Shown piece after piece: positions 2,808 to 35,572 of a DNA stretch of 40,693 nt. Source of the stretch: Clostridiales bacterium (GTDB lineage: Bacteria; Bacillota; Clostridia; Lachnospirales; JAISYE01); NCBI GenBank assembly GCA_031297485.1, contig JAISYE010000067.1:1-40693 (forward strand), given 5' to 3'. Positions within the stretch are counted from its first letter, which is position 1. Every line of letters begins with the position of its first letter. The notes beneath the pieces were generated by a model. The model worked only from the letters and a program-made list of their open reading frames with translations. It ran no database searches and was not told the DNA's origin. A program made the translations under genes and the position numbers.

Positions 2808-2841
2808 TCGGAACGCGCCGCCCTTGTTTGTCGGGTTCTTT
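2808..2841 (-). repeat. Internally deleted family C element in the aminotransferase leader
   Basis: Minus strand reads aaagaacccgacaaacaagggcggcgcg-ttccg, matching both ends of the 59-bp unit at 11571-11629. Confidence 0.65.
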
Positions 2842-10425: not shown

Positions 10426-11457
10426 TCAGAATATGCTGTTCACCAGCCGGAGGGTTTCCTCCTCGTCCAGTACCACGTAGGATTTCCCGCCTATATCCTG
10501 GGGCGAGCAGGGCAGAGTGGCGGTTACAATATTTTCGGGCCGCAGATTTTTGACGTACTTTAAATATTTAGGCGCTTCGGCCAGCGAAAAATTGGTTTCT
10601 ACATAGTTGAAGTAGGTCGCTAGAAGGGCGGGCAGGCTGTTAATTATATTCTCGCTTGAAAGAGCCTGGGAGGCCATCGCCTTTATAAAGGCGTGCTGGG
10701 TGGCCGCGCGGCCCAGGTCCTGCAGGGGATAGCCGGGGGTTTCGTCCGCCGCGCCGAAATTCCCATGCCTGTACCGCAGCAGCTGCTCCGCCTGGTCCCC
10801 GTTAAGCACCTGCGGCCCCGGCTCCAAATTTATGTGCAGGCCCTGCAGCGGGTCGTCATAGCGCATGGCCTGCGGCACGTCAAATTCCACGCCGTTAATG
10901 CTGTCCACTATAAAACGCAGCGCCTCGAAATCCACGGTTACATAATATTCGAAGTCTTGTGCCAAAAGCGACTCTATCTGCTGGCACAGGACCTCCATAC
11001 CCAGCTCGTTTCCGGCGTAATGGTAAACTTCGCACGCCTTCATTTCACCGGAGGCGGGAACATACTTGCCCTTGTCTTTTAACAGCGCCTGGTTTTCTTC
11101 TGTCATTACCACATATGTATCCCGTGGAACGGAAATAAGGTTAAGCGTCAGGCTGACCGCGTTAAAACACCCGGCTATTATGGTGTCGGTGCGCGGTACG
11201 CCGGCTTCCTGGCTGTCCACGCCCACAATTAAAAAATTTGTGCGCTCCTTTAGCGGCGTTACAGAATCCACTATTTCCTGTAAAATAGTTTTTTTGTCAG
11301 AAGACTTGGCGCCGGGCGAAAAACCGCCGGTATTCGGCGCCACGTCCGCCGTAAAGTACGCAACCGCCAGCAGCAGCCCTACCGCAATGGAAAAACCCGC
11401 TATTATTCCGAAAACTATTCTGAAAAATGTTGCCGCTGAACTTTTTTTGCGTCTCAT
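10426..11457 (-). CDS. LytR-CpsA-Psr (LCP) family cell-wall glycopolymer transferase
   Basis: N-terminal TM helix; 'NFLIVGVD..RTDTII..SVPRDT', 'LLRYRH', 'DLGR..Q'. Start taken at 'MRRKK'. Confidence 0.9.
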   Translation of the reverse strand: MRRKKSSAATFFRIVFGIIAGFSIAVGLLLAVAYFTADVAPNTGGFSPGAKSSDKKTILQEIVDSVTPLKERTNFLIVGVDSQEAGVPRTDTIIAGCFNAVSLTLNLISVPRDTYVVMTEENQALLKDKGKYVPASGEMKACEVYHYAGNELGMEVLCQQIESLLAQDFEYYVTVDFEALRFIVDSINGVEFDVPQAMRYDDPLQGLHINLEPGPQVLNGDQAEQLLRYRHGNFGAADETPGYPLQDLGRAATQHAFIKAMASQALSSENIINSLPALLATYFNYVETNFSLAEAPKYLKYVKNLRPENIVTATLPCSPQDIGGKSYVVLDEEETLRLVNSIF

Positions 11458-11507
11458 GTAAAGTTCCTCTCTGTCAAAAACATACCGGTGACGGCTGAAT
11501 TTTGATA

Positions 11508-11696
11508 AAACCACGAATGAACACAAATAAACACGAATATAAAAAACAATCGTGTCCATTCATGTCCATTAAAGAACCCGGCGAACAAGGGCGGCGCGAA
11601 GCGCCGTTTTCGCGAAGCGAAAATTCCGAAAAGAACCCGGCGAACAAGGGCGGCGCGAAGCGCCGTTTTCGCGAAGCGAAAATTCCGACGTGGTTT
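11508..11696. repeat. AACCACGAAT-type palindromic repeat interrupted by two family C units
   Basis: Left arm aaaccacgaatgaacacaaataaacacgaat. Right arm atcgtgtccattcatgtccatt + cgtggttt reconstitutes once 11571-11688 is removed. Confidence 0.75.
11571..11688 (+). mobile_element. Two identical tandem 59-bp family C palindromic elements
   Basis: aaagaacccggcgaacaagggcggcgcgaagcgccgttttcgcgaagcgaaaattccga at 11571-11629 and 11630-11688. Confidence 0.85.
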
Positions 11697-11736
11697 AAAT
11701 AAACGCCCTTTGTCTTTGCCGGCGGCAGCGGGCAGT

Positions 11737-13620
11737 TTACACCGCCTCGAACTGGCTGTTATACAGCTGGTAATAAAAGCCGCGCTGCTCCAGCAGCTGT
11801 TCGTGGGTGCCCTGTTCCACAATGTCGCCCTCGTTCATTACTAGGATTATATCAGCGTTCCTGATAGTTGACAAGCGGTGGGCGATTATAAAGCTCGTCC
11901 TGCCCTTCATTAAATTTTGCATGGCTTCCTGAATGCGCACCTCTGTGCGGGTGTCCACAGAGCTTGTGGCCTCGTCGAGTATCAGAATTTTCGGGTCGCA
12001 CAGGAACGCCCGCGCTATTGTGAGCAGCTGTTTTTCTCCTTGGGAAACATTGGACGTGTCTTCGTTAAGCTCCATGTCATAGCCGTTGGGCAGCGTGCTG
12101 ATAAAACGGTGCACATGGGCCGCCCGCGCCGCCTGCTTTACCTCGCTGTCTCCGGCGCCGGGCTTGCCGTAGCGGATGTTGTCCATGATACTGCCGTAAA
12201 AAAGCCAGGTGTCTTGCAGTACCATGCCGAATAAATTCCGCAGCCCGCCCCTGTTGAATTCCCTGATGTCCGTGCCGTCTACCAGGATTCTCCCGCCGTT
12301 AAGCTCGTAAAAACGCATCAGCAGTTTTACTATTGTCGTTTTGCCCGCGCCCGTTGGCCCAACAATGGCGATTTTTCTGCCCGGCTCGATTTTCGCGGAA
12401 AAGTCGTTTATCACGATCTTGTCTTCGTTATAGCCGAAGCGCACATGGTCGAATTCTATGCCTCCGGATATGTCCGTCGTTTGGGCCGGATTCTCCGGGT
12501 CGGCTTCCTCTTCCTGTTCGCCTAAAAACTCAAAAACCCTTTCCGCCGCCGCCGCTGTGGACTGTAATACATTCGCGATCTGCGCGGTCTGGGTTATTGG
12601 CTGCGTAAACGAACGGATATAGGAAATAAACGCTAAAATGTCCCCTACCTCTATAACGCGCCGCGCCGCCAGCACCCCGCCGGCAATACTGACCCCCACG
12701 TACCCCAGGTTGCCCACAAAGCCCATAAGCGGCATCATAACCCCGGAAAAAAACTGCGCCTTCCACGCGCTGGTGTACAGTACCTCGTTGTCCGCGCCAA
12801 AAGTCTCTATGGCGCGCCCTTCGCCGTTAAACGCCTTTACGACTATATGCCCGCTGTAAATCTCCTCCACCTGGCCGTTTACATGTCCCAGGTATTCCTG
12901 CTGCAACTTAAAATGCGGCTGCGACAGCTTTACCATAGCACTGGCCAAAAACAGCGACATGGGTATCATTAACAGCGCTATAAGCGTCATAAGGGGGCTT
13001 ATGGTCAGCATCATGATGATTATCCCGATTATGGTGGTTACGGACGTTATTATCTGCGAGAGGCTTTGACTTAGGGTCTGGCTTACTGTGTCCACGTCGT
13101 TTGTTATACGGGACAAAACTTCCCCTCGCGTCTGCCTGTCGAAATATTTAAGGGGCAGTTTGTTTATCTTTTTGAAAATTTCCTCCCGCAGGTTATAGGA
13201 GATTTTTTGCGTCACGCCCGCCATAATATAGCTTTGCGCGCCACCGAACAACGTACTGACCAAGTACATGGCCAGCAGCAGCAGACATATCTGCCCCAGC
13301 CTCGCGAAATCTATTCCGCCCGCGCCCTGGGCTGCCAACATGACGCCGTTGTATATTTCGGTTGTGGCGGAACCGGTTATTTTCGGCCCCACTATGGAAA
13401 AAATGCAGCTGGCCGCCGCAAGCACTATTACAGCCGTAATGCCGGCCCAATAGGGTTTTATGTGTTGCAGCAGGCTGAGCATTGTGCCTTTAAAATTCTT
13501 CGCCTTGGCACCGGGGAACATTCCGGCCATTGGTCCGCCCGGGCCTCCAGGCCTGCCTGGGCCGCCGGGGCGGAATGGCCTGCCGGGGCCGCCCGGGGCG
13601 TCATGCCGTTTTTCGCTCAT
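11737..13620 (-). CDS. Heterodimeric ABC exporter, TMD-NBD subunit (TM288-like)
   Basis: Six TM helices; Walker A GPTGAGKT, signature SQGEKQ, Walker B ILILDE, H-loop AHR. Confidence 0.93.
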   Translation of the reverse strand: MSEKRHDAPGGPGRPFRPGGPGRPGGPGGPMAGMFPGAKAKNFKGTMLSLLQHIKPYWAGITAVIVLAAASCIFSIVGPKITGSATTEIYNGVMLAAQGAGGIDFARLGQICLLLLAMYLVSTLFGGAQSYIMAGVTQKISYNLREEIFKKINKLPLKYFDRQTRGEVLSRITNDVDTVSQTLSQSLSQIITSVTTIIGIIIMMLTISPLMTLIALLMIPMSLFLASAMVKLSQPHFKLQQEYLGHVNGQVEEIYSGHIVVKAFNGEGRAIETFGADNEVLYTSAWKAQFFSGVMMPLMGFVGNLGYVGVSIAGGVLAARRVIEVGDILAFISYIRSFTQPITQTAQIANVLQSTAAAAERVFEFLGEQEEEADPENPAQTTDISGGIEFDHVRFGYNEDKIVINDFSAKIEPGRKIAIVGPTGAGKTTIVKLLMRFYELNGGRILVDGTDIREFNRGGLRNLFGMVLQDTWLFYGSIMDNIRYGKPGAGDSEVKQAARAAHVHRFISTLPNGYDMELNEDTSNVSQGEKQLLTIARAFLCDPKILILDEATSSVDTRTEVRIQEAMQNLMKGRTSFIIAHRLSTIRNADIILVMNEGDIVEQGTHEQLLEQRGFYYQLYNSQFEAV

Positions 13621-19663: not shown

Positions 19664-21011
19664 TGGCTTCACCTCCCTTTGGCGCCCGCTCGTTGCACTT
19701 AAGGTGCCTTTCCCACATGTTAAGCAGTTTGCTGACCACAAACGTAATCATCCAATAGATAATCGCGAGCGTGACGTACATCTCGAAGTAGCGGTAATCC
19801 ATCTGACTCAGCAGCTGGCCCTTACGTGTCATTTCCACGACGGACACGGTAAAAGCAAGGCTTGTGCCCTTAATCATACTGATATACGCGTTGCCGAGGC
19901 TGGGCAGCGCGATAACCAGCGACTCCGGTATAATTATGCGCCGCAAGGTCTGCCACGTACTCATGCCGATACTGTGCGCGGCTTCAATCTGCCCTTTGTC
20001 AACCGCTTGAATTGCCGCGCGGATGGCTTCCGACGAGTACGCCGCGTCGTTTAAGGCAAGGGCCACAAGCGCGAAGGTAATACGAGGGATTTCGTTAATA
20101 AACGCCGTGTCGGCGCCGAGAGCCTTAAGCGCCATCGGTATGCCGTACAGCGTGGCGTAAAGCTGAATAACAATCGGCGTGCCGCGCGTAAACGAAACAT
20201 ATGCCGACGCGATATGGCGCGCCACCGGCACGCGCTTCACCTTAACAATCGCCACAATAAACGCCACGAGAAGGCTGGCGAACATCGAAACCGTAGCGAT
20301 ATACAGCGTAATCGGCAGATATGCGAGTATAGGGGGAATGCGTTCGAAAATCAGCAGCGCATCAAACATCGGCGAACTTTTGTAGCGCAGGCCGGCGCTT
20401 TCGTTTAACAAAATCGTGCCGAGCCGCTGCGCCGAAAAGGTCCAACGCGCGTCCCCAAGCGCTTCAAAATCGGCTTTTGCCTGAAGCGCGGTTTTATACT
20501 TTTCATCGTCCGGACTGCCGTCCTTTTGGGTGAATCCGGCGGGGTCCGGCTCCGTAAACGTGAATTGCACTATACTGTCCGTTTTGACGTATGTACCCGG
20601 AACGTTGACGAAGCCGTATTTGTCGTCGGTGTGAATATAGAACCCTGTGCCGGTGAACTTAACGTACTCGCTTTTCCCTTCAAACTCACGGGTCGAGCTG
20701 TTGTACACCTGCAAATAGTAGTCGCCCGACAGCCGGTCTGCTAACCCGCAGGCCGACAGGGACAGCGCGGCGGCAATCATTACGAGCGCCGCCCGAATCC
20801 AACCGCGGGGGCGGCCGGAATTTTCGCCGCCTAAGGGTGATTTGTCCGTTGCCGCGCCCAAGAGACAACCCGCCGTTAGCTTGTTCGCCGGGTTCTTTAT
20901 TGTGCCCGCCCGAAAATTTTGAAACCTGCCGGGTCCCGGGCAGGTTTCAACGCTGGTTCCGCGCGGCGGGACTTCTGACGCGAAACCTTTTGCTGCTTTA
21001 ATTGCGCTCAT
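19629..21011 (-). CDS. Polar amino-acid ABC permease (HisM/TcyB type) with N-terminal lipoprotein-like extension; start uncertain (21011 or 20780)
   Basis: 'FTRGTPIVIQL', EAA loop 'GQIEAAHSIGMS', 'KGTSL'; upstream 'AALSLSACG' lipobox plus a soluble domain of about 120 aa. Confidence 0.85.
   Translation of the reverse strand: MSAIKAAKGFASEVPPRGTSVETCPGPGRFQNFRAGTIKNPANKLTAGCLLGAATDKSPLGGENSGRPRGWIRAALVMIAAALSLSACGLADRLSGDYYLQVYNSSTREFEGKSEYVKFTGTGFYIHTDDKYGFVNVPGTYVKTDSIVQFTFTEPDPAGFTQKDGSPDDEKYKTALQAKADFEALGDARWTFSAQRLGTILLNESAGLRYKSSPMFDALLIFERIPPILAYLPITLYIATVSMFASLLVAFIVAIVKVKRVPVARHIASAYVSFTRGTPIVIQLYATLYGIPMALKALGADTAFINEIPRITFALVALALNDAAYSSEAIRAAIQAVDKGQIEAAHSIGMSTWQTLRRIIIPESLVIALPSLGNAYISMIKGTSLAFTVSVVEMTRKGQLLSQMDYRYFEMYVTLAIIYWMITFVVSKLLNMWERHLKCNERAPKGGEASASAIGSAKMV
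20815..20898 (-). mobile_element. 84-bp family C element, in frame within the permease 5' region
   Basis: Minus strand aaagaacccggcgaacaag...gcgaaaattccgg; translated as KNPANKLTAGCLLGAATDKSPLGGENS. Confidence 0.75.
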
Positions 21012-22093: not shown

Positions 22094-22177
22094 AAAGAAC
22101 CCTGCGGACAAGCTAACGTTGGGTTGTCCTTTAGGCGCGAAGCGCCGTAATAGCTTCGCGAAAACTCCAAATTCCGG
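22094..22177 (+). mobile_element. 84-bp family C element, intergenic
   Basis: aaagaaccctgcggacaag...ggcgcgaagcgcc...aaattccgg. Confidence 0.7.
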
Positions 22178-23720: not shown

Positions 23721-23800
23721 TACGAATATGCTCGCGCAGGTTTCGCCTATAGGCATAGCAGGGGAGGGTGAGGCTTGAAAAATGAGTTTGGAATTTTCGC
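23721..23800 (+). repeat. Degenerate copy of the glycoside hydrolase 3' end (35320-35398)
   Basis: Manual alignment gives 69/80 identical columns, including tttcgcctatagg and cttgaaaaatgag. Confidence 0.85.
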
Positions 23801-23905
23801 CTCAAAGAGCGCGGCGAAAACGGCCTAACGGTAATTTGCCCGTTGCCGCGCCCAACGGACAACCCTAACGGTGAACTGTCCGTCGGGTTTTTCGCCAGGT
23901 TCTTT
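23790..23905 (-). mobile_element. Family C element with inserted 21-nt modules
   Basis: Begins ggaattttcgc and ends ggttcttt, the reverse complements of the family C ends. Confidence 0.7.
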
Positions 23906-32563: not shown

Positions 32564-35383
32564 ATGTACAACAGATTGCTCGACGTATTAGAAAATAAAA
32601 GTAAAAACTATATTCTGCCGTTTTTTTGGCAACACGGCGAAGACGAAAAGATTTTGCGCGAATATATGCAAGTTATTCACAACGCCAATATAGGCGCGGT
32701 GTGCGTCGAGAGCCGCCCTCATCCGGATTTTTGCGGTGAAAAATGGTGGACGGATATGGACGCCATTTTGGACGAGGCCGCACGGCTGAATATGAAAGTG
32801 TGGATACTTGACGATTCGCACTTTCCGACAGGCTATGCGAACGGGTCAATGGAAAACGTCCCGAAAGAGCTGCGTCACCAATATTTGGACTATAATACGC
32901 TTAACGTATGCGGTCCCAAGCCCGCCGTGGAAATTGACGTAAACGCATTAATCCACCCAAGACCAGCGCCGCCTTGGCTTCCGCCCCCGCCGCCTAAGCG
33001 CGTGTTTAACGACGACAAACTCTTTAAGGTTTTGGCGGCTGAATATGTTGGGGATAAACTTGGCGAAAGCATTGATTTAACAGAGTTTGCGGCGGACGGA
33101 CGGCTTGTGTGGAATGTCCCCAAAGGTTATTGGCGCATATTTATCGTTTATCTTACGCGCGACGCGAACGGGCGTAATGATTACATTAACTTTTTGGACG
33201 AAAGATCTTGCCGTGTACTTATAGACGCGGTGTACGAAACGCATTACGAGCGTTATAAAAACCTTTTCGGCAGCGTTATAGCCGGATTTTTCAGCGACGA
33301 ACCACCTATAGGCAACAGCCCGGGATATACGCGCAACAACCGTATAGGAGACTTAATGCCTTTGCCCTGGTCTGCCGCCATGCCTGACAAATTTTCGGAA
33401 GAATATGGCGCGGGCTGGAAGAAGCAGGTTATTTACTTGTGGGAACAAGGTGTTGACGAAGAGGAAACAGCGCGTATAAGAAGCGCGTATATGCACAGCG
33501 TAAGTAAACTTGTTGAAAATTGCTTTTCCGGGCAAATAGGGCGCTGGTGTGAGGAACACGGCGTTCTGTATATCGGGCATATGCTTGAAGACTGCGATGC
33601 GAACGCCGACTTGGGGCCGTCTATGGGGCATTTTTTCCGCGGGCTTAAAGGCCAGCATATGGCGGGAATAGACAACATAGGCGGGCAGGTGGTTATTGGC
33701 GGTCAAAACTCGCCGCGTTTTCCCGCGCAGGGCGGTTTTGATGTTGCGGGATTTTACCATTATCTGTTGGGGCGTTTAGGCGCGTCAATGGCGGCTATTG
33801 ACGCTAATAAGCAAGGGCGCTGTTTGTGTGAAAACTTTGGCGCGTATGGATGGCAAACCGGTGTTTCAACCATGAAGTACCTAACCGACCATTTTCTTGT
33901 ACGCGGCGTAAATAGGTATGTTCCTCATGCCTTTTCGCCGAAAAAGTTCCCCGACCCAGACTGCCCCCCGCATTTTTACGCGCGCGGCGAAAACCCTCAA
34001 TATAAAGCGTTCGCCGCCCTTATGGCTTACACGAACCGGGTTTGCCACTTAATCGACGGCGGTAAGCCTATAACGCCTGCCGCTGTGCTTTACCACGGCG
34101 AAAGCCGTTGGGCGGGCGCTTATCAAAGCAATATAGAAGTGTGCAAAATTTTGACGAGAAATCAAATAGGCTTCACGGTCATACCTGCCGATGTATTTGG
34201 CCGGACTTCCAGTGAATATGGCACCGCTTTATCAGCCGATGGCAAGACTTTAACTATAAACGGCGTGGCTTTTTCGGCGTTGATTATTTCGGAATGTGAT
34301 TACATGCCATACCAAGCGGCTTTGTTTGCCGAACGCGCTTTATCTTGCGGGTTCCCTCTTTTCTTCACAGGGAAATTACCCAAAGGTGTCTGCGACGCGG
34401 AAAAAGCCGAAAGCAAGCGTTTAATGGCTTTACTCGGGGCCCGCGCCGTCCCCGTCCCTGCGGTTGATATACCCAACGCGCTTGCGCCATATGTTAAGCG
34501 CGACGTAATTATAAATGGCGGCAGTTTTCAGAACTTAACGGCATACCGCTATAAAAATACTGAAAATGGCGCGCCGGAGGTTCCGGACTCGCTAGTATAT
34601 TTGTTATTGAACGAAGACCCGTGCGAAACATTCGGGGGCGGGACTTCCGGTGCGGCGCAAATCGCGCTTGAGGGCGCGGCGGAAATGGAAGTTTACAAAT
34701 ACGACGCGTGGAATAATCAGCTTTTTGAAGTGCCAAGCAAAACCGTAAGTTCCGGCTGCGGCAGATGGATTGACATTACGCTTGAGCCGCTTGAAATGGC
34801 CATTTTCGTTTGTCAGGCTGAAAAGATTCCCTCAAGGCGGCAAAGTAAAGTCCGCGAAAGCCTTGAACTTGACGGTTTTACGGTTTCTTGCGCGGCGGCC
34901 GGCAAGTATCCGTCATTCGACAGAGAACCCGGCGAACAAGGGCGGCGTGAAGCGCCGTTTTCGCGAAGCGCCGTTTTCGCGAAGCGAAAATTCCGAAGAG
35001 TTGGCGTGCCCGACTTTATAAATGGCATGGGACTGATACTTAAAGATTTTACCGGTTTTATACGTTACGAAACAACGTTTGAAGCGCAACCCGGTTTTAT
35101 TGTGGATGATAGATATAAAAACGATGTATTTTTATGCCTTGAACAAGTATACGACACCGCCGAAATCTATGTGAACGGTAAAAGTGTTGGGAGCATTGTA
35201 TGTAAGCCGTACAAAATTAACATAGGCGGCTACTTGAATAATGGAACCAATTCTATTATAATAGAGGTAGCCACGACGCTTGAACGTAAAGTGATTGCCA
35301 TGGGCCTTGACGTTGCGTGTATGAATATACCCGCGCCGGTTTCGCCTATAGGTATAGTAGGGAGGGTGAGACTTGAAAAATGA
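32564..35383 (+). CDS. Large glycoside hydrolase (GH106-like catalytic region with C-terminal GH2-type sugar-binding domain)
   Basis: 'YILPFFWQHGE', 'ESRPHPDF', 'WILDDSHFPTG', 'GFFSDEP', 'ENFGAYGW', 'VPHAF', 'AEIYVNG..PY'. Confidence 0.8.
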   Translation: MYNRLLDVLENKSKNYILPFFWQHGEDEKILREYMQVIHNANIGAVCVESRPHPDFCGEKWWTDMDAILDEAARLNMKVWILDDSHFPTGYANGSMENVPKELRHQYLDYNTLNVCGPKPAVEIDVNALIHPRPAPPWLPPPPPKRVFNDDKLFKVLAAEYVGDKLGESIDLTEFAADGRLVWNVPKGYWRIFIVYLTRDANGRNDYINFLDERSCRVLIDAVYETHYERYKNLFGSVIAGFFSDEPPIGNSPGYTRNNRIGDLMPLPWSAAMPDKFSEEYGAGWKKQVIYLWEQGVDEEETARIRSAYMHSVSKLVENCFSGQIGRWCEEHGVLYIGHMLEDCDANADLGPSMGHFFRGLKGQHMAGIDNIGGQVVIGGQNSPRFPAQGGFDVAGFYHYLLGRLGASMAAIDANKQGRCLCENFGAYGWQTGVSTMKYLTDHFLVRGVNRYVPHAFSPKKFPDPDCPPHFYARGENPQYKAFAALMAYTNRVCHLIDGGKPITPAAVLYHGESRWAGAYQSNIEVCKILTRNQIGFTVIPADVFGRTSSEYGTALSADGKTLTINGVAFSALIISECDYMPYQAALFAERALSCGFPLFFTGKLPKGVCDAEKAESKRLMALLGARAVPVPAVDIPNALAPYVKRDVIINGGSFQNLTAYRYKNTENGAPEVPDSLVYLLLNEDPCETFGGGTSGAAQIALEGAAEMEVYKYDAWNNQLFEVPSKTVSSGCGRWIDITLEPLEMAIFVCQAEKIPSRRQSKVRESLELDGFTVSCAAAGKYPSFDREPGEQGRREAPFSRSAVFAKRKFRRVGVPDFINGMGLILKDFTGFIRYETTFEAQPGFIVDDRYKNDVFLCLEQVYDTAEIYVNGKSVGSIVCKPYKINIGGYLNNGTNSIIIEVATTLERKVIAMGLDVACMNIPAPVSPIGIVGRVRLEK
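34922..34996 (+). mobile_element. 75-bp family C element inserted in frame in the glycoside hydrolase
   Basis: 59-bp unit (2 mismatches vs 11571-11629) plus a 16-bp tandem duplication ccgttttcgcgaagcg; codon-aligned; encodes REPGEQGRREAPFSRSAVFAKRKFR. Confidence 0.9.
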
Positions 35384-35385
35384 GC

Positions 35386-35526
35386 CCGGAATTTTCGCTT
35401 TGCGAAAACGCGGCCCGCAGAGGTTGGTCCGTCTTCGCCGCAACGGAGAACCTAACGGTGAATTGTCCGTTGCGGTGAATTGTCCGTTGCGGTGAATTGT
35501 CCGTTGGTTTTGTCCGTCGGGTTCTT
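35386..35526 (-). mobile_element. Family C element containing three tandem 17-mers
   Basis: Ends ccggaattttcgc / cgggttctt; cggtgaattgtccgttg three times at 35456-35506. Confidence 0.75.
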
Positions 35527-35572
35527 GGGCGTTCGGGGTAAAGAAATAATACAACAGATGGGAAAATGATAT

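Follow-up and report, generated by a model that had tools for sequence, protein, structure and literature searches.

The 40,693-nucleotide (nt) contig JAISYE010000067.1 of a Clostridiales bacterium (assembly GCA_031297485.1), hereafter the window, carries a head-to-tail dimer of a short hairpin repeat, which we call family C, within one arm of a different palindrome. The dimer lies between the stop of an ABC transporter gene on the minus strand and the start of a LytR_cpsA_psr family gene (Table 1); judged from the sequence, the latter gene likely starts at the ATG at 11456-11458, which would make 11459-11736 intergenic. The insert consists of two identical 59-mers (Tandem Repeats Finder: period 59, 2.0 copies, 100% matches, score 236), the copy number of two being that of the assembly. 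Its left flank terminates in GTCCATT and its right flank opens with CGTGGTTT, and CATT joined to CGTGGTTT, read on the opposite strand, matches AAACCACGAATG at 11508-11519 exactly. Excision of exactly 118 nt (11571-11688) makes the outer stem of the host palindrome whole, and a shift of the boundary by one base in either direction destroys the pairing. Furthermore, the bases of the host palindrome pair across the insert in a single-strand fold of 11500-11705 (z = -4.1, 200 shuffles). An earlier reading made from the sequence alone (the sequence-only reading) had claimed two exact 59-mers whose removal rejoins a palindrome, and the repeat search, the reverse-complement match and the fold agree on this point.

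Several lines of evidence indicate that family C inserts without a target-site duplication. First, the host palindrome is of the ACCACGAAT type, a family with 37 decamer arrays and five clean palindromic copies elsewhere in the genome. Three unbroken copies (C200:6930-6998, C56:11322-11390 and C56:192-259, where C numbers are contigs) run ...GTCCATTCGTGGT... across the junction with nothing duplicated, which is the junction sequence that the sequence-only reading had predicted for uninterrupted copies. Thus, the empty-site sequence of the dimer exists in this genome without a duplicated target. Second, we joined the flanks of 88 family C arrays and searched the genome with them, which gave junction-spanning matches for 18 arrays; 15 alignments were inspected. 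Ten filled/empty comparisons, representing eight insertion sites, are continuous exactly across the junction (Table 1), and the window locus against C200 is an eleventh. Four comparisons are less clean: C205:14573 diverges near the junction from both C219 and C204, and C59 versus C209 and C64 versus C259 contain junction indels. Third, flanking direct repeats of at least 4 nt are found at none of 75 arrays genome-wide, and flanking repeats of 2-3 nt occur at the same frequency as in shuffled pairings. The earlier claim that no target site is duplicated is thereby borne out across the genome, where most copies have neither duplications nor other boundaries. A search of same-order genomes for an orthologous empty site of the dimer locus returned matches to the coding flanks only. 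One copy of a MITE (miniature inverted-repeat transposable element), at C259:10226-10314, has only AAAGAACCCAA left where its sister copies have a full family C unit, and this remnant may represent an internal deletion or imprecise loss.

Our census of family C used a 19-nt 5' motif (at most 3 mismatches, 129 matches) and a 13-nt 3' motif (at most 1 mismatch, 117 matches) in BLAST and Hamming scans, and places about 80-130 copies in this genome. The units are modular and 34-232 nt long. They begin with a conserved AAAGAACCCGNCGAACAAG(GG), end with a conserved hairpin followed by TTCCGA, and contain between these ends small hairpin modules in variable assortment; AAAGAACCCG... and ...TTCCGA, the two ends, have no complementarity. 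Conservation spans from the first A of AAAGAAC to the last A of TTCCGA in 85 5' flanks (27 of 112 were dropped as belonging to one MITE subfamily or to tandem junctions) and in 108 of 115 3' flanks, so that the element ends given by the sequence-only reading prove exact. The closest copy elsewhere to the 59-mer (compared as copy 2) is C249:8333-8391, at 98%. Unit lengths divisible by 3 are over-represented, also when only intergenic units are counted (57/96 overall), and the common forms are 48, 69, 87 and 105 nt.

Family C of the core type folds as two adjacent hairpins. When 25 distinct core sequences, taken from this genome and other sources, are compared, the stem sequences vary and the pairing is retained: hairpin 1 occurs as CGGCGC/GCGCCG, CGAC/GTCG, CAGC/GCTG or TGGC/GCCA, and hairpin 2 as TTTTCGC/GCGAAAA, TTTTCAC/GTGAAAA or TTATTCC/GGAATAA. 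The loops are mostly of the form C-GNA-G (GAA 14, GTA 7, GCA 4, GGA 2); in DNA, a G-N-A triloop with a C-G closing pair gives a very stable mini-hairpin. The 3' hairpin stands 6 nt from the element end in nearly all copies, the 5' end contains an invariant CCC(N9)GGG stem, and hairpin 1 begins 21 nt in. These hairpins were taken from single-sequence folds, and were missed by MAFFT with RNAalifold because the stem lengths differ. No Rfam family was found for family C (E <= 1), the one sub-threshold match, to mir-996, being taken as chance (20.8 bits, where the gathering score is 40.3; E = 0.41), and its core 16-mers were not found in a search of about 8.1 million PubMed Central (PMC) papers and 0.36 million preprints. 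Two copies contain exact internal tandem repeats, of 16 nt x2.4 (34949-34986) and 17 nt x3 (35456-35506), and the hairpin modules have therefore multiplied by slippage.

The flanks reveal a clear choice of target. Among 85 independent 5' flanks, C is found at -4 in 71, A at -3 in 47 and a pyrimidine at -1 in 68 (T 39, C 29), and the base directly 3' of the element is a purine in 88/108. The commonest target tetranucleotides in 84 flanks are CAAT (10), CAAC (9), CACT (5), CAGC (4), CCAT (4) and CATT (3), for which 0.1-0.6 would be expected; CAAT, CAAC and similar C-A-N-Y targets occur at 30-40 times expectation (0.1-0.3 for CAAT, CAAC and CACT). The same bias is present in 47 independent flanks from other genomes and from metagenome and viral contigs (C at -4 in 32, A at -3 in 23, T at -1 in 25). 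Because these bases are already present in the empty sites, C-A-N-Y reflects target choice and is no part of the element. The sequence-only reading had noted that copies start after T; this stands insofar as T is the commonest base at -1, but the C at -4 is the stronger signal. Its further suggestion that hairpins are favoured as targets is not supported, given that 65 reconstructed empty sites have a mean folding energy of -7.05 kcal/mol, compared with -8.47 in 600 motif-matched controls, and that the junction falls between paired bases in 15 of the 65 sites but in 242 of the 600 controls (65 of 76 arrays were used, leaving aside any close to a contig end or belonging to the MITE subfamily). 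The insertion into a palindrome at the window locus is therefore not typical.

Family C has entered genes. Among 84 paired units, 22 lie inside greedily called open reading frames (ORFs), and 17 of these have a length divisible by 3, as do 33 of the 62 intergenic units. A homolog of DapF aligns to PDB 2otn on either side of an insert of about 30 amino acids (aa) that corresponds to an 87-nt copy, and an RtcB-like ORF contains a copy of 69 nt, though here the alignment is less clear. Inside genes family C is read in all six frames, and it is therefore no protein module.

Other mobile DNA has likewise been entered. Family C copies are found within a MITE with terminal inverted repeats (TIRs) in this genome. 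In an IS91-like insertion sequence (IS) of genome G286, which encodes an integrase and a Y2 transposase, two copies lie within the integrase gene (C40:1494-1547 and 1940-1998; locus L028), and in genome G223 one copy of an IS110 element has two inserts in its upstream non-coding region, whereas a sister copy has neither.

Beside these cases stand several observations on the host elements. The TIR-MITE family has the ends GTGTCTATTCAGAGG...CCTCTGAATAGACAC (123 end matches) and nested hairpin modules, as in the 23506 region of the window (C67 - 17188); in about 25 of its copies family C is represented by its 19-nt 5' part alone, and about 8 have a full 48-nt copy. G286 is AT-rich with GC-rich family C inserts, and its interrupted IS has multiplied, the same insert being present on another contig (L072). 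In a metagenome-assembled genome (MAG) titled Lachnospirales (L043-L118), about 20 family C copies have identical flanks because one copy rides in a TIR-MITE of about 200 nt, AT-rich, that breaks many contigs. A repeat of about 135 copies (TATACTCACACACGAAAACA ... TGTTTTCGTGTGTGAGCAACC...; C149, C106, C80, C250) stands at 32 contig ends and has received three family C insertions at the same position.

The distribution of family C is patchy. Of 401 genomes of the same order, 15 contain the 19-mer (at most 1 mismatch), scattered across families, with 82 matches in the genome studied here (G000), 32 in G078, 11 in G267 and 1-3 in the others; a reversed-pattern control gave 0-1 per genome. A wider scan of 185,579 species genomes found at least 93 matching stretches. 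Among the matches listed, full copies are found in several MAGs titled Lachnospirales, Lachnospiraceae, Clostridiales, Defluviitaleaceae, Syntrophomonadaceae, Oscillospiraceae or Firmicutes and in one Treponema MAG, the last possibly a binning error, and the single matches in other phyla have no 3' end and are within chance expectation (~17). Three IMG/VR contigs contain one full copy each. These three viral loci and 43 metagenome loci hold short forms only.

Based on these observations, we propose, with a probability of about 0.5, that family C, a non-autonomous mobile element with unlike ends that inserts without target-site duplication, is moved by an HUH-type enzyme acting in trans on single-stranded DNA; such an enzyme is the most likely mover. 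Its cut at the 5' end would follow the target tetranucleotide and its cut at the 3' end would follow CCGA, in the manner of IS200/IS605 and IS91-family transposases. The element enters directly 3' of a target of a few bases, with C at -4 and usually C-A-A/N-Y before a purine, and does not duplicate it. At the window locus, a copy inserted after CATT in the right arm of the host palindrome and stands there now as an exact head-to-tail dimer. The edges of a resident element would remain targets, with the motif kept upstream and a C at -4 in the 3' end, and would thereby give rise to tandems of unlike copies.

In its anatomy family C seems to work most like the HUH single-strand transposons IS200/IS605 and IS91, though it is a proven member of neither. 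The left end of IS608 inserts 3' of TTAC, a tetranucleotide that is still essential afterwards (PMC5027513). The IS91 family is described as having no target-site duplication, a tetranucleotide target beside oriIS, subterminal palindromes, and single- and double-stranded circles with joined ends (PMC13181058); the targets given there are CTTG/GTTC, that is, CAAG/GAAC (PMC13181058, PMC3189936), and IS801 targets GAAC/GGAC/CAAG/CGAC and yields mobile miniature fragments (PMC3189936). Family C resembles IS200/IS605 in the absence of a duplication, in a left end placed 3' of a retained tetra- or pentanucleotide, and in unlike ends, with a hairpin near the 3' one; its 5' end has no clear hairpin and its C-A-N-Y target is looser. 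It shares with IS91 the lack of a duplication, a tetranucleotide target at one end (the IS801 targets resemble CAAC/CAAT, without being the same), a subterminal GC-rich palindrome by the other end and, with IS801, small mobile fragments; it differs in being far smaller and seems to lack sequence likeness to a known oriIS or terIS. The possibility that family C copies are the ends of the IS91-like element of G286 was rejected, since they are inserts within its integrase gene.

A number of results weigh against an HUH-type mover. PF01797 (Y1), PF04986 (Y2) and PF01548 (IS110) have no match in this 90.7%-complete MAG. In addition, Y1 is present in only 3/11 family C carriers tested, which sets family C apart from IS200/IS605, and Y2 in 1/10 (G286, and none in G000, G078, G267, G005 and G401-G405), which sets it apart from IS91. 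We found no transposase-bearing element bounded by family C ends: of nine pairs of 5' and 3' motifs 260-6000 nt apart, four were examined and enclose ordinary genes, and a self-megablast of the genome revealed no IS-sized repeats, the longest being 944 bp at 85%. No RAYT-like gene is present among the two window genes that are flanked by copies and were scanned (solute-binding protein and aminotransferase; six such genes in all are so flanked). A lagging-strand bias has been reported for IS608 and ISDra2, whereas family C shows no orientation bias relative to the strand of the gene majority (48 vs 39, p = 0.39) or to GC skew (37 vs 31, p = 0.54), two proxies for replication direction that agree in 30/31 contigs. 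Finally, the 5' end stem is weak, at 3 bp. Two candidate sources were set aside: the IS200 copies of G401 have unrelated ends, and the sole TnpB fragment, considered as an autonomous partner, has unrelated flanks. Little weight falls on the missing transposase, since IS-like termini with unassembled interiors are found at contig ends. Two clusters of contig ends (C204_L, C52_L, C78_L and C96_R; C291_L, C58_R and C63_L) have GAGTCT[G/A]CTGCAAGAA... after unique sequence and look like such termini.

The tandems bear on how the dimer arose. The sequence-only reading held that head-to-tail tandems can form, and such tandems recur at C60, C205, C211, C21 and C33 and in two other sources. The units of the window dimer (100%) and of the C60 trimer (97%) have their closest relatives next to them, whereas the neighbours at C205 and C211 are only 72% and 68% alike and yet 84-96% like copies elsewhere; of the four arrays scored, two thus have unlike neighbours. 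At C205 and C211, therefore, one element was already present when another entered precisely at its edge. Tandems of unlike copies are expected because the target motif survives upstream and the CCGA of the 3' end carries a C at -4. Judged from these sequences, tandems appear to arise in two ways, through local duplication and through independent insertions that abut; the route may include a circular or multimeric intermediate but does not need one. For the identical window dimer, local duplication or re-insertion of the same copy is more likely. We regard the chances as even that this dimer is a single inserted copy later duplicated by replication slippage or unequal exchange, with no multimeric circle and no second insertion. 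The identity of its units and the slippage within elements noted above fit this account, but the tandems of unlike units (C205 and C211, and by eye C21 and C33) require abutting insertion as well.

A broader proposal would make family C the first representative to be described of a widespread class in Clostridia and phages, consisting of duplication-free, tetranucleotide-targeted hairpin elements that lie in frame in genes and are moved by an enzyme that is neither a Y1/Y2 HUH transposase nor of the IS110 type, that is, by a new type of transposase or by a host enzyme acting on C-GNA-G mini-hairpins. We consider this doubtful and offer it as speculation.

It is improbable that family C moves as a double-stranded circle by way of a site-specific recombinase, whether a guide-RNA-directed DEDD enzyme of the IS110/IS1111 type, a serine recombinase of the IS607 type or a tyrosine recombinase. 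Such elements are likewise free of target-site duplications, the unlike ends are in keeping with such a mechanism, the tandem junction is the predicted circle junction (TTCCGA joined to AAAGAAC), and two copies adjoin the IS110 transposase gene in G223. However, family C targets share only ~4 nt, whereas IS110-type targeting uses long specific sites. The ends (…CCGA before AAAG…) and the targets (CAAY before R) appear to have no dinucleotide or longer core in common, although serine and tyrosine recombinases require one, and on this reasoning the serine/tyrosine model was rejected. Furthermore, the sister IS110 copy of G223 is without both inserts and IS110 is therefore a target and not a source, and PF01548 was not found in G000, G267 and G402. 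Membership in IS110/IS1111 was rejected on the same grounds.

Still less probable is insertion by way of RNA, in which a small structured transcript would undergo reverse splicing or be copied by target-primed reverse transcription. The exact, duplication-free junctions, the conserved ends around a variable middle, the conserved hairpins and the lack of a replication-strand bias would all suit such a route. Against it, there are no features of group I or group II introns, Rfam gave only the sub-threshold chance match, and the intragenic copies are mostly multiples of 3 and open in the frame of the host gene, and are therefore translated and not spliced out. Finally, it is very hard to believe that the repeats are immobile REP-like structural or regulatory sequences of the host, spread by recombination or gene conversion, with the 118 nt ancestral: a missing transposase and strongly conserved ends, which could reflect a host binding protein, would agree with this, but filled/empty pairs in contexts as unrelated as conserved genes, IS elements and phage contigs, a patchy distribution across the families of the order, and the use of all six reading frames in genes argue against it.

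Family C can also be compared with other small repeats. Pneumococcal BOX elements and the bacterial interspersed mosaic elements (BIMEs) of enterobacteria have conserved end modules and a variable number of internal hairpin modules; the ends of BOX are partly complementary, and the insertion mechanism of BOX and BIMEs is unknown or tied to TA. Family C likewise combines conserved end modules with variable internal hairpins. Like repetitive extragenic palindromes (REPs) and REPINs, family C consists of short, GC-rich hairpin repeats present in many copies and in clusters without target-site duplication, but in contrast to the REP/RAYT system its clusters are direct and head to tail instead of inverted pairs, PF01797 is absent, and coding sequence is entered. 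A classical MITE derived from a DDE transposon was rejected because the ends are not complementary and no target site is duplicated. The core sites of integron attC read RYYYAAC ... GTTRRRY at the ends, and attC was rejected because the ends of family C are AAAGAAC and TTCCGA and its copies are dispersed, not in cassette arrays. Rickettsia palindromic elements (RPEs) are described in a review as small repeats that lie in frame within unrelated protein-coding genes, with an unknown mechanism (PMC10969869). Family C resembles RPEs, as described there, in its in-frame insertions, such as that of DapF, but its sequence and host phylum are unrelated, it has defined unlike ends and a target, and the use of six frames means that, unlike RPEs, it encodes no single conserved peptide. 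We thus describe family C as a duplication-free, HUH-like non-autonomous element with RPE-like behaviour in genes, where RPE-like denotes a functional class and no family of homologs; it is a proven member of none of the IS200/IS605, IS91, REP/RAYT, IS110 or attC families.

Family C provides a clean natural case of insertion without target-site duplication, in which filled and empty sites correspond exactly, the target is defined at 4 nt and the DNA hairpins are conserved. To our knowledge, such small elements have been little described in MAGs of Clostridia. Their entry into conserved enzymes (DapF), mobile elements and phage contigs means that they supply proteins with insertions, mark horizontal traffic and cause breaks in assemblies. 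If the mover is a known HUH transposase, small non-autonomous derivatives of IS91 or IS200 type are extended to these Clostridia; if it is not, family C points to a new transposition activity.

Table 1. Features of the dimer locus, further family C copies of the window, and clean filled/empty pairs (C numbers, contigs of the genome)
Feature	Position	Strand	Basis
Host palindrome, left arm (AAACCACGAAT and decamer repeats NNACACRAAT)	11508-11538	+	sequence, fold
Host palindrome, loop	11539-11549	+	sequence, fold
Host palindrome, right arm, inner part, with target CATT at its end	11550-11570	+	sequence, fold, empty sites
Family C copy 1, 59 nt, with a 5' end of 21 nt, hairpin 1 CGGCGC-GAA-GCGCCG, hairpin 2 TTTTCGC-GAA-GCGAAAA, 3' TTCCGA	11571-11629	+	
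Family C copy 2, same as copy 1, abutting head to tail	11630-11688	+	
Host palindrome, right arm, outer part (CGTGGTTT), separated by the insertion	11689-11696	+	sequence, fold, empty sites
LytR_cpsA_psr family ORF, as listed	10426-11559	-	
ABC transporter gene (membrane and ATPase domains), stop 48 nt right of the insert	11737-13620	-	
Minimal family C copy, 34 nt: 5' end, half hairpin, TTCCGA; after CAAT	2808-2841	-	
Family C copy, 84 nt, after CAAT	20815-20898	-	
Divergent family C copy, 77 nt, 3' end degenerate	22094-22170	+	
Family C copy, 118 nt, with additional hairpin modules, following CACT	23788-23905	-	
Family C copy, 75 nt (59-mer type with 16 nt duplicated internally), in frame within a glycosidase-like ORF of 939 aa (32564-35383)	34922-34996	+	
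Divergent family C copy, 142 nt, with 17-nt x3 tandem module	35386-35527	-	
Clean filled/empty pair	C147 vs C99		
Clean filled/empty pairs	C205:16793 vs C235; C205:16793 vs C167		
Clean filled/empty pairs, all three between TTCAG[T/C] and GTTTTCG	C245, C34 and C8 vs ~135-copy repeat		
Clean filled/empty pair; paralogue C75 is without the 69-nt insert of C29	C29 vs C75		
Clean filled/empty pair	C72 vs C170		
Clean filled/empty pairs	C64 vs C138; C10 vs C138		

Two minor observations remain. Small hairpin modules (such as CTAACGGTGA..GTCCGTTGG, CCAACGAACAAACCATCGTTAGG and GTTTTGAAAT..ATTTCAG) lie in the loops of other repeats, hairpin 1 of family C included, at many loci of this genome and also at L142, L144, L151, L183 and others, which suggests that they are further nested mini-elements. 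In the window, a GC-rich tandem repeat of 27 nt x2.5 (77% matches) is present at 13531-13597, near the border of two ABC transporter genes.
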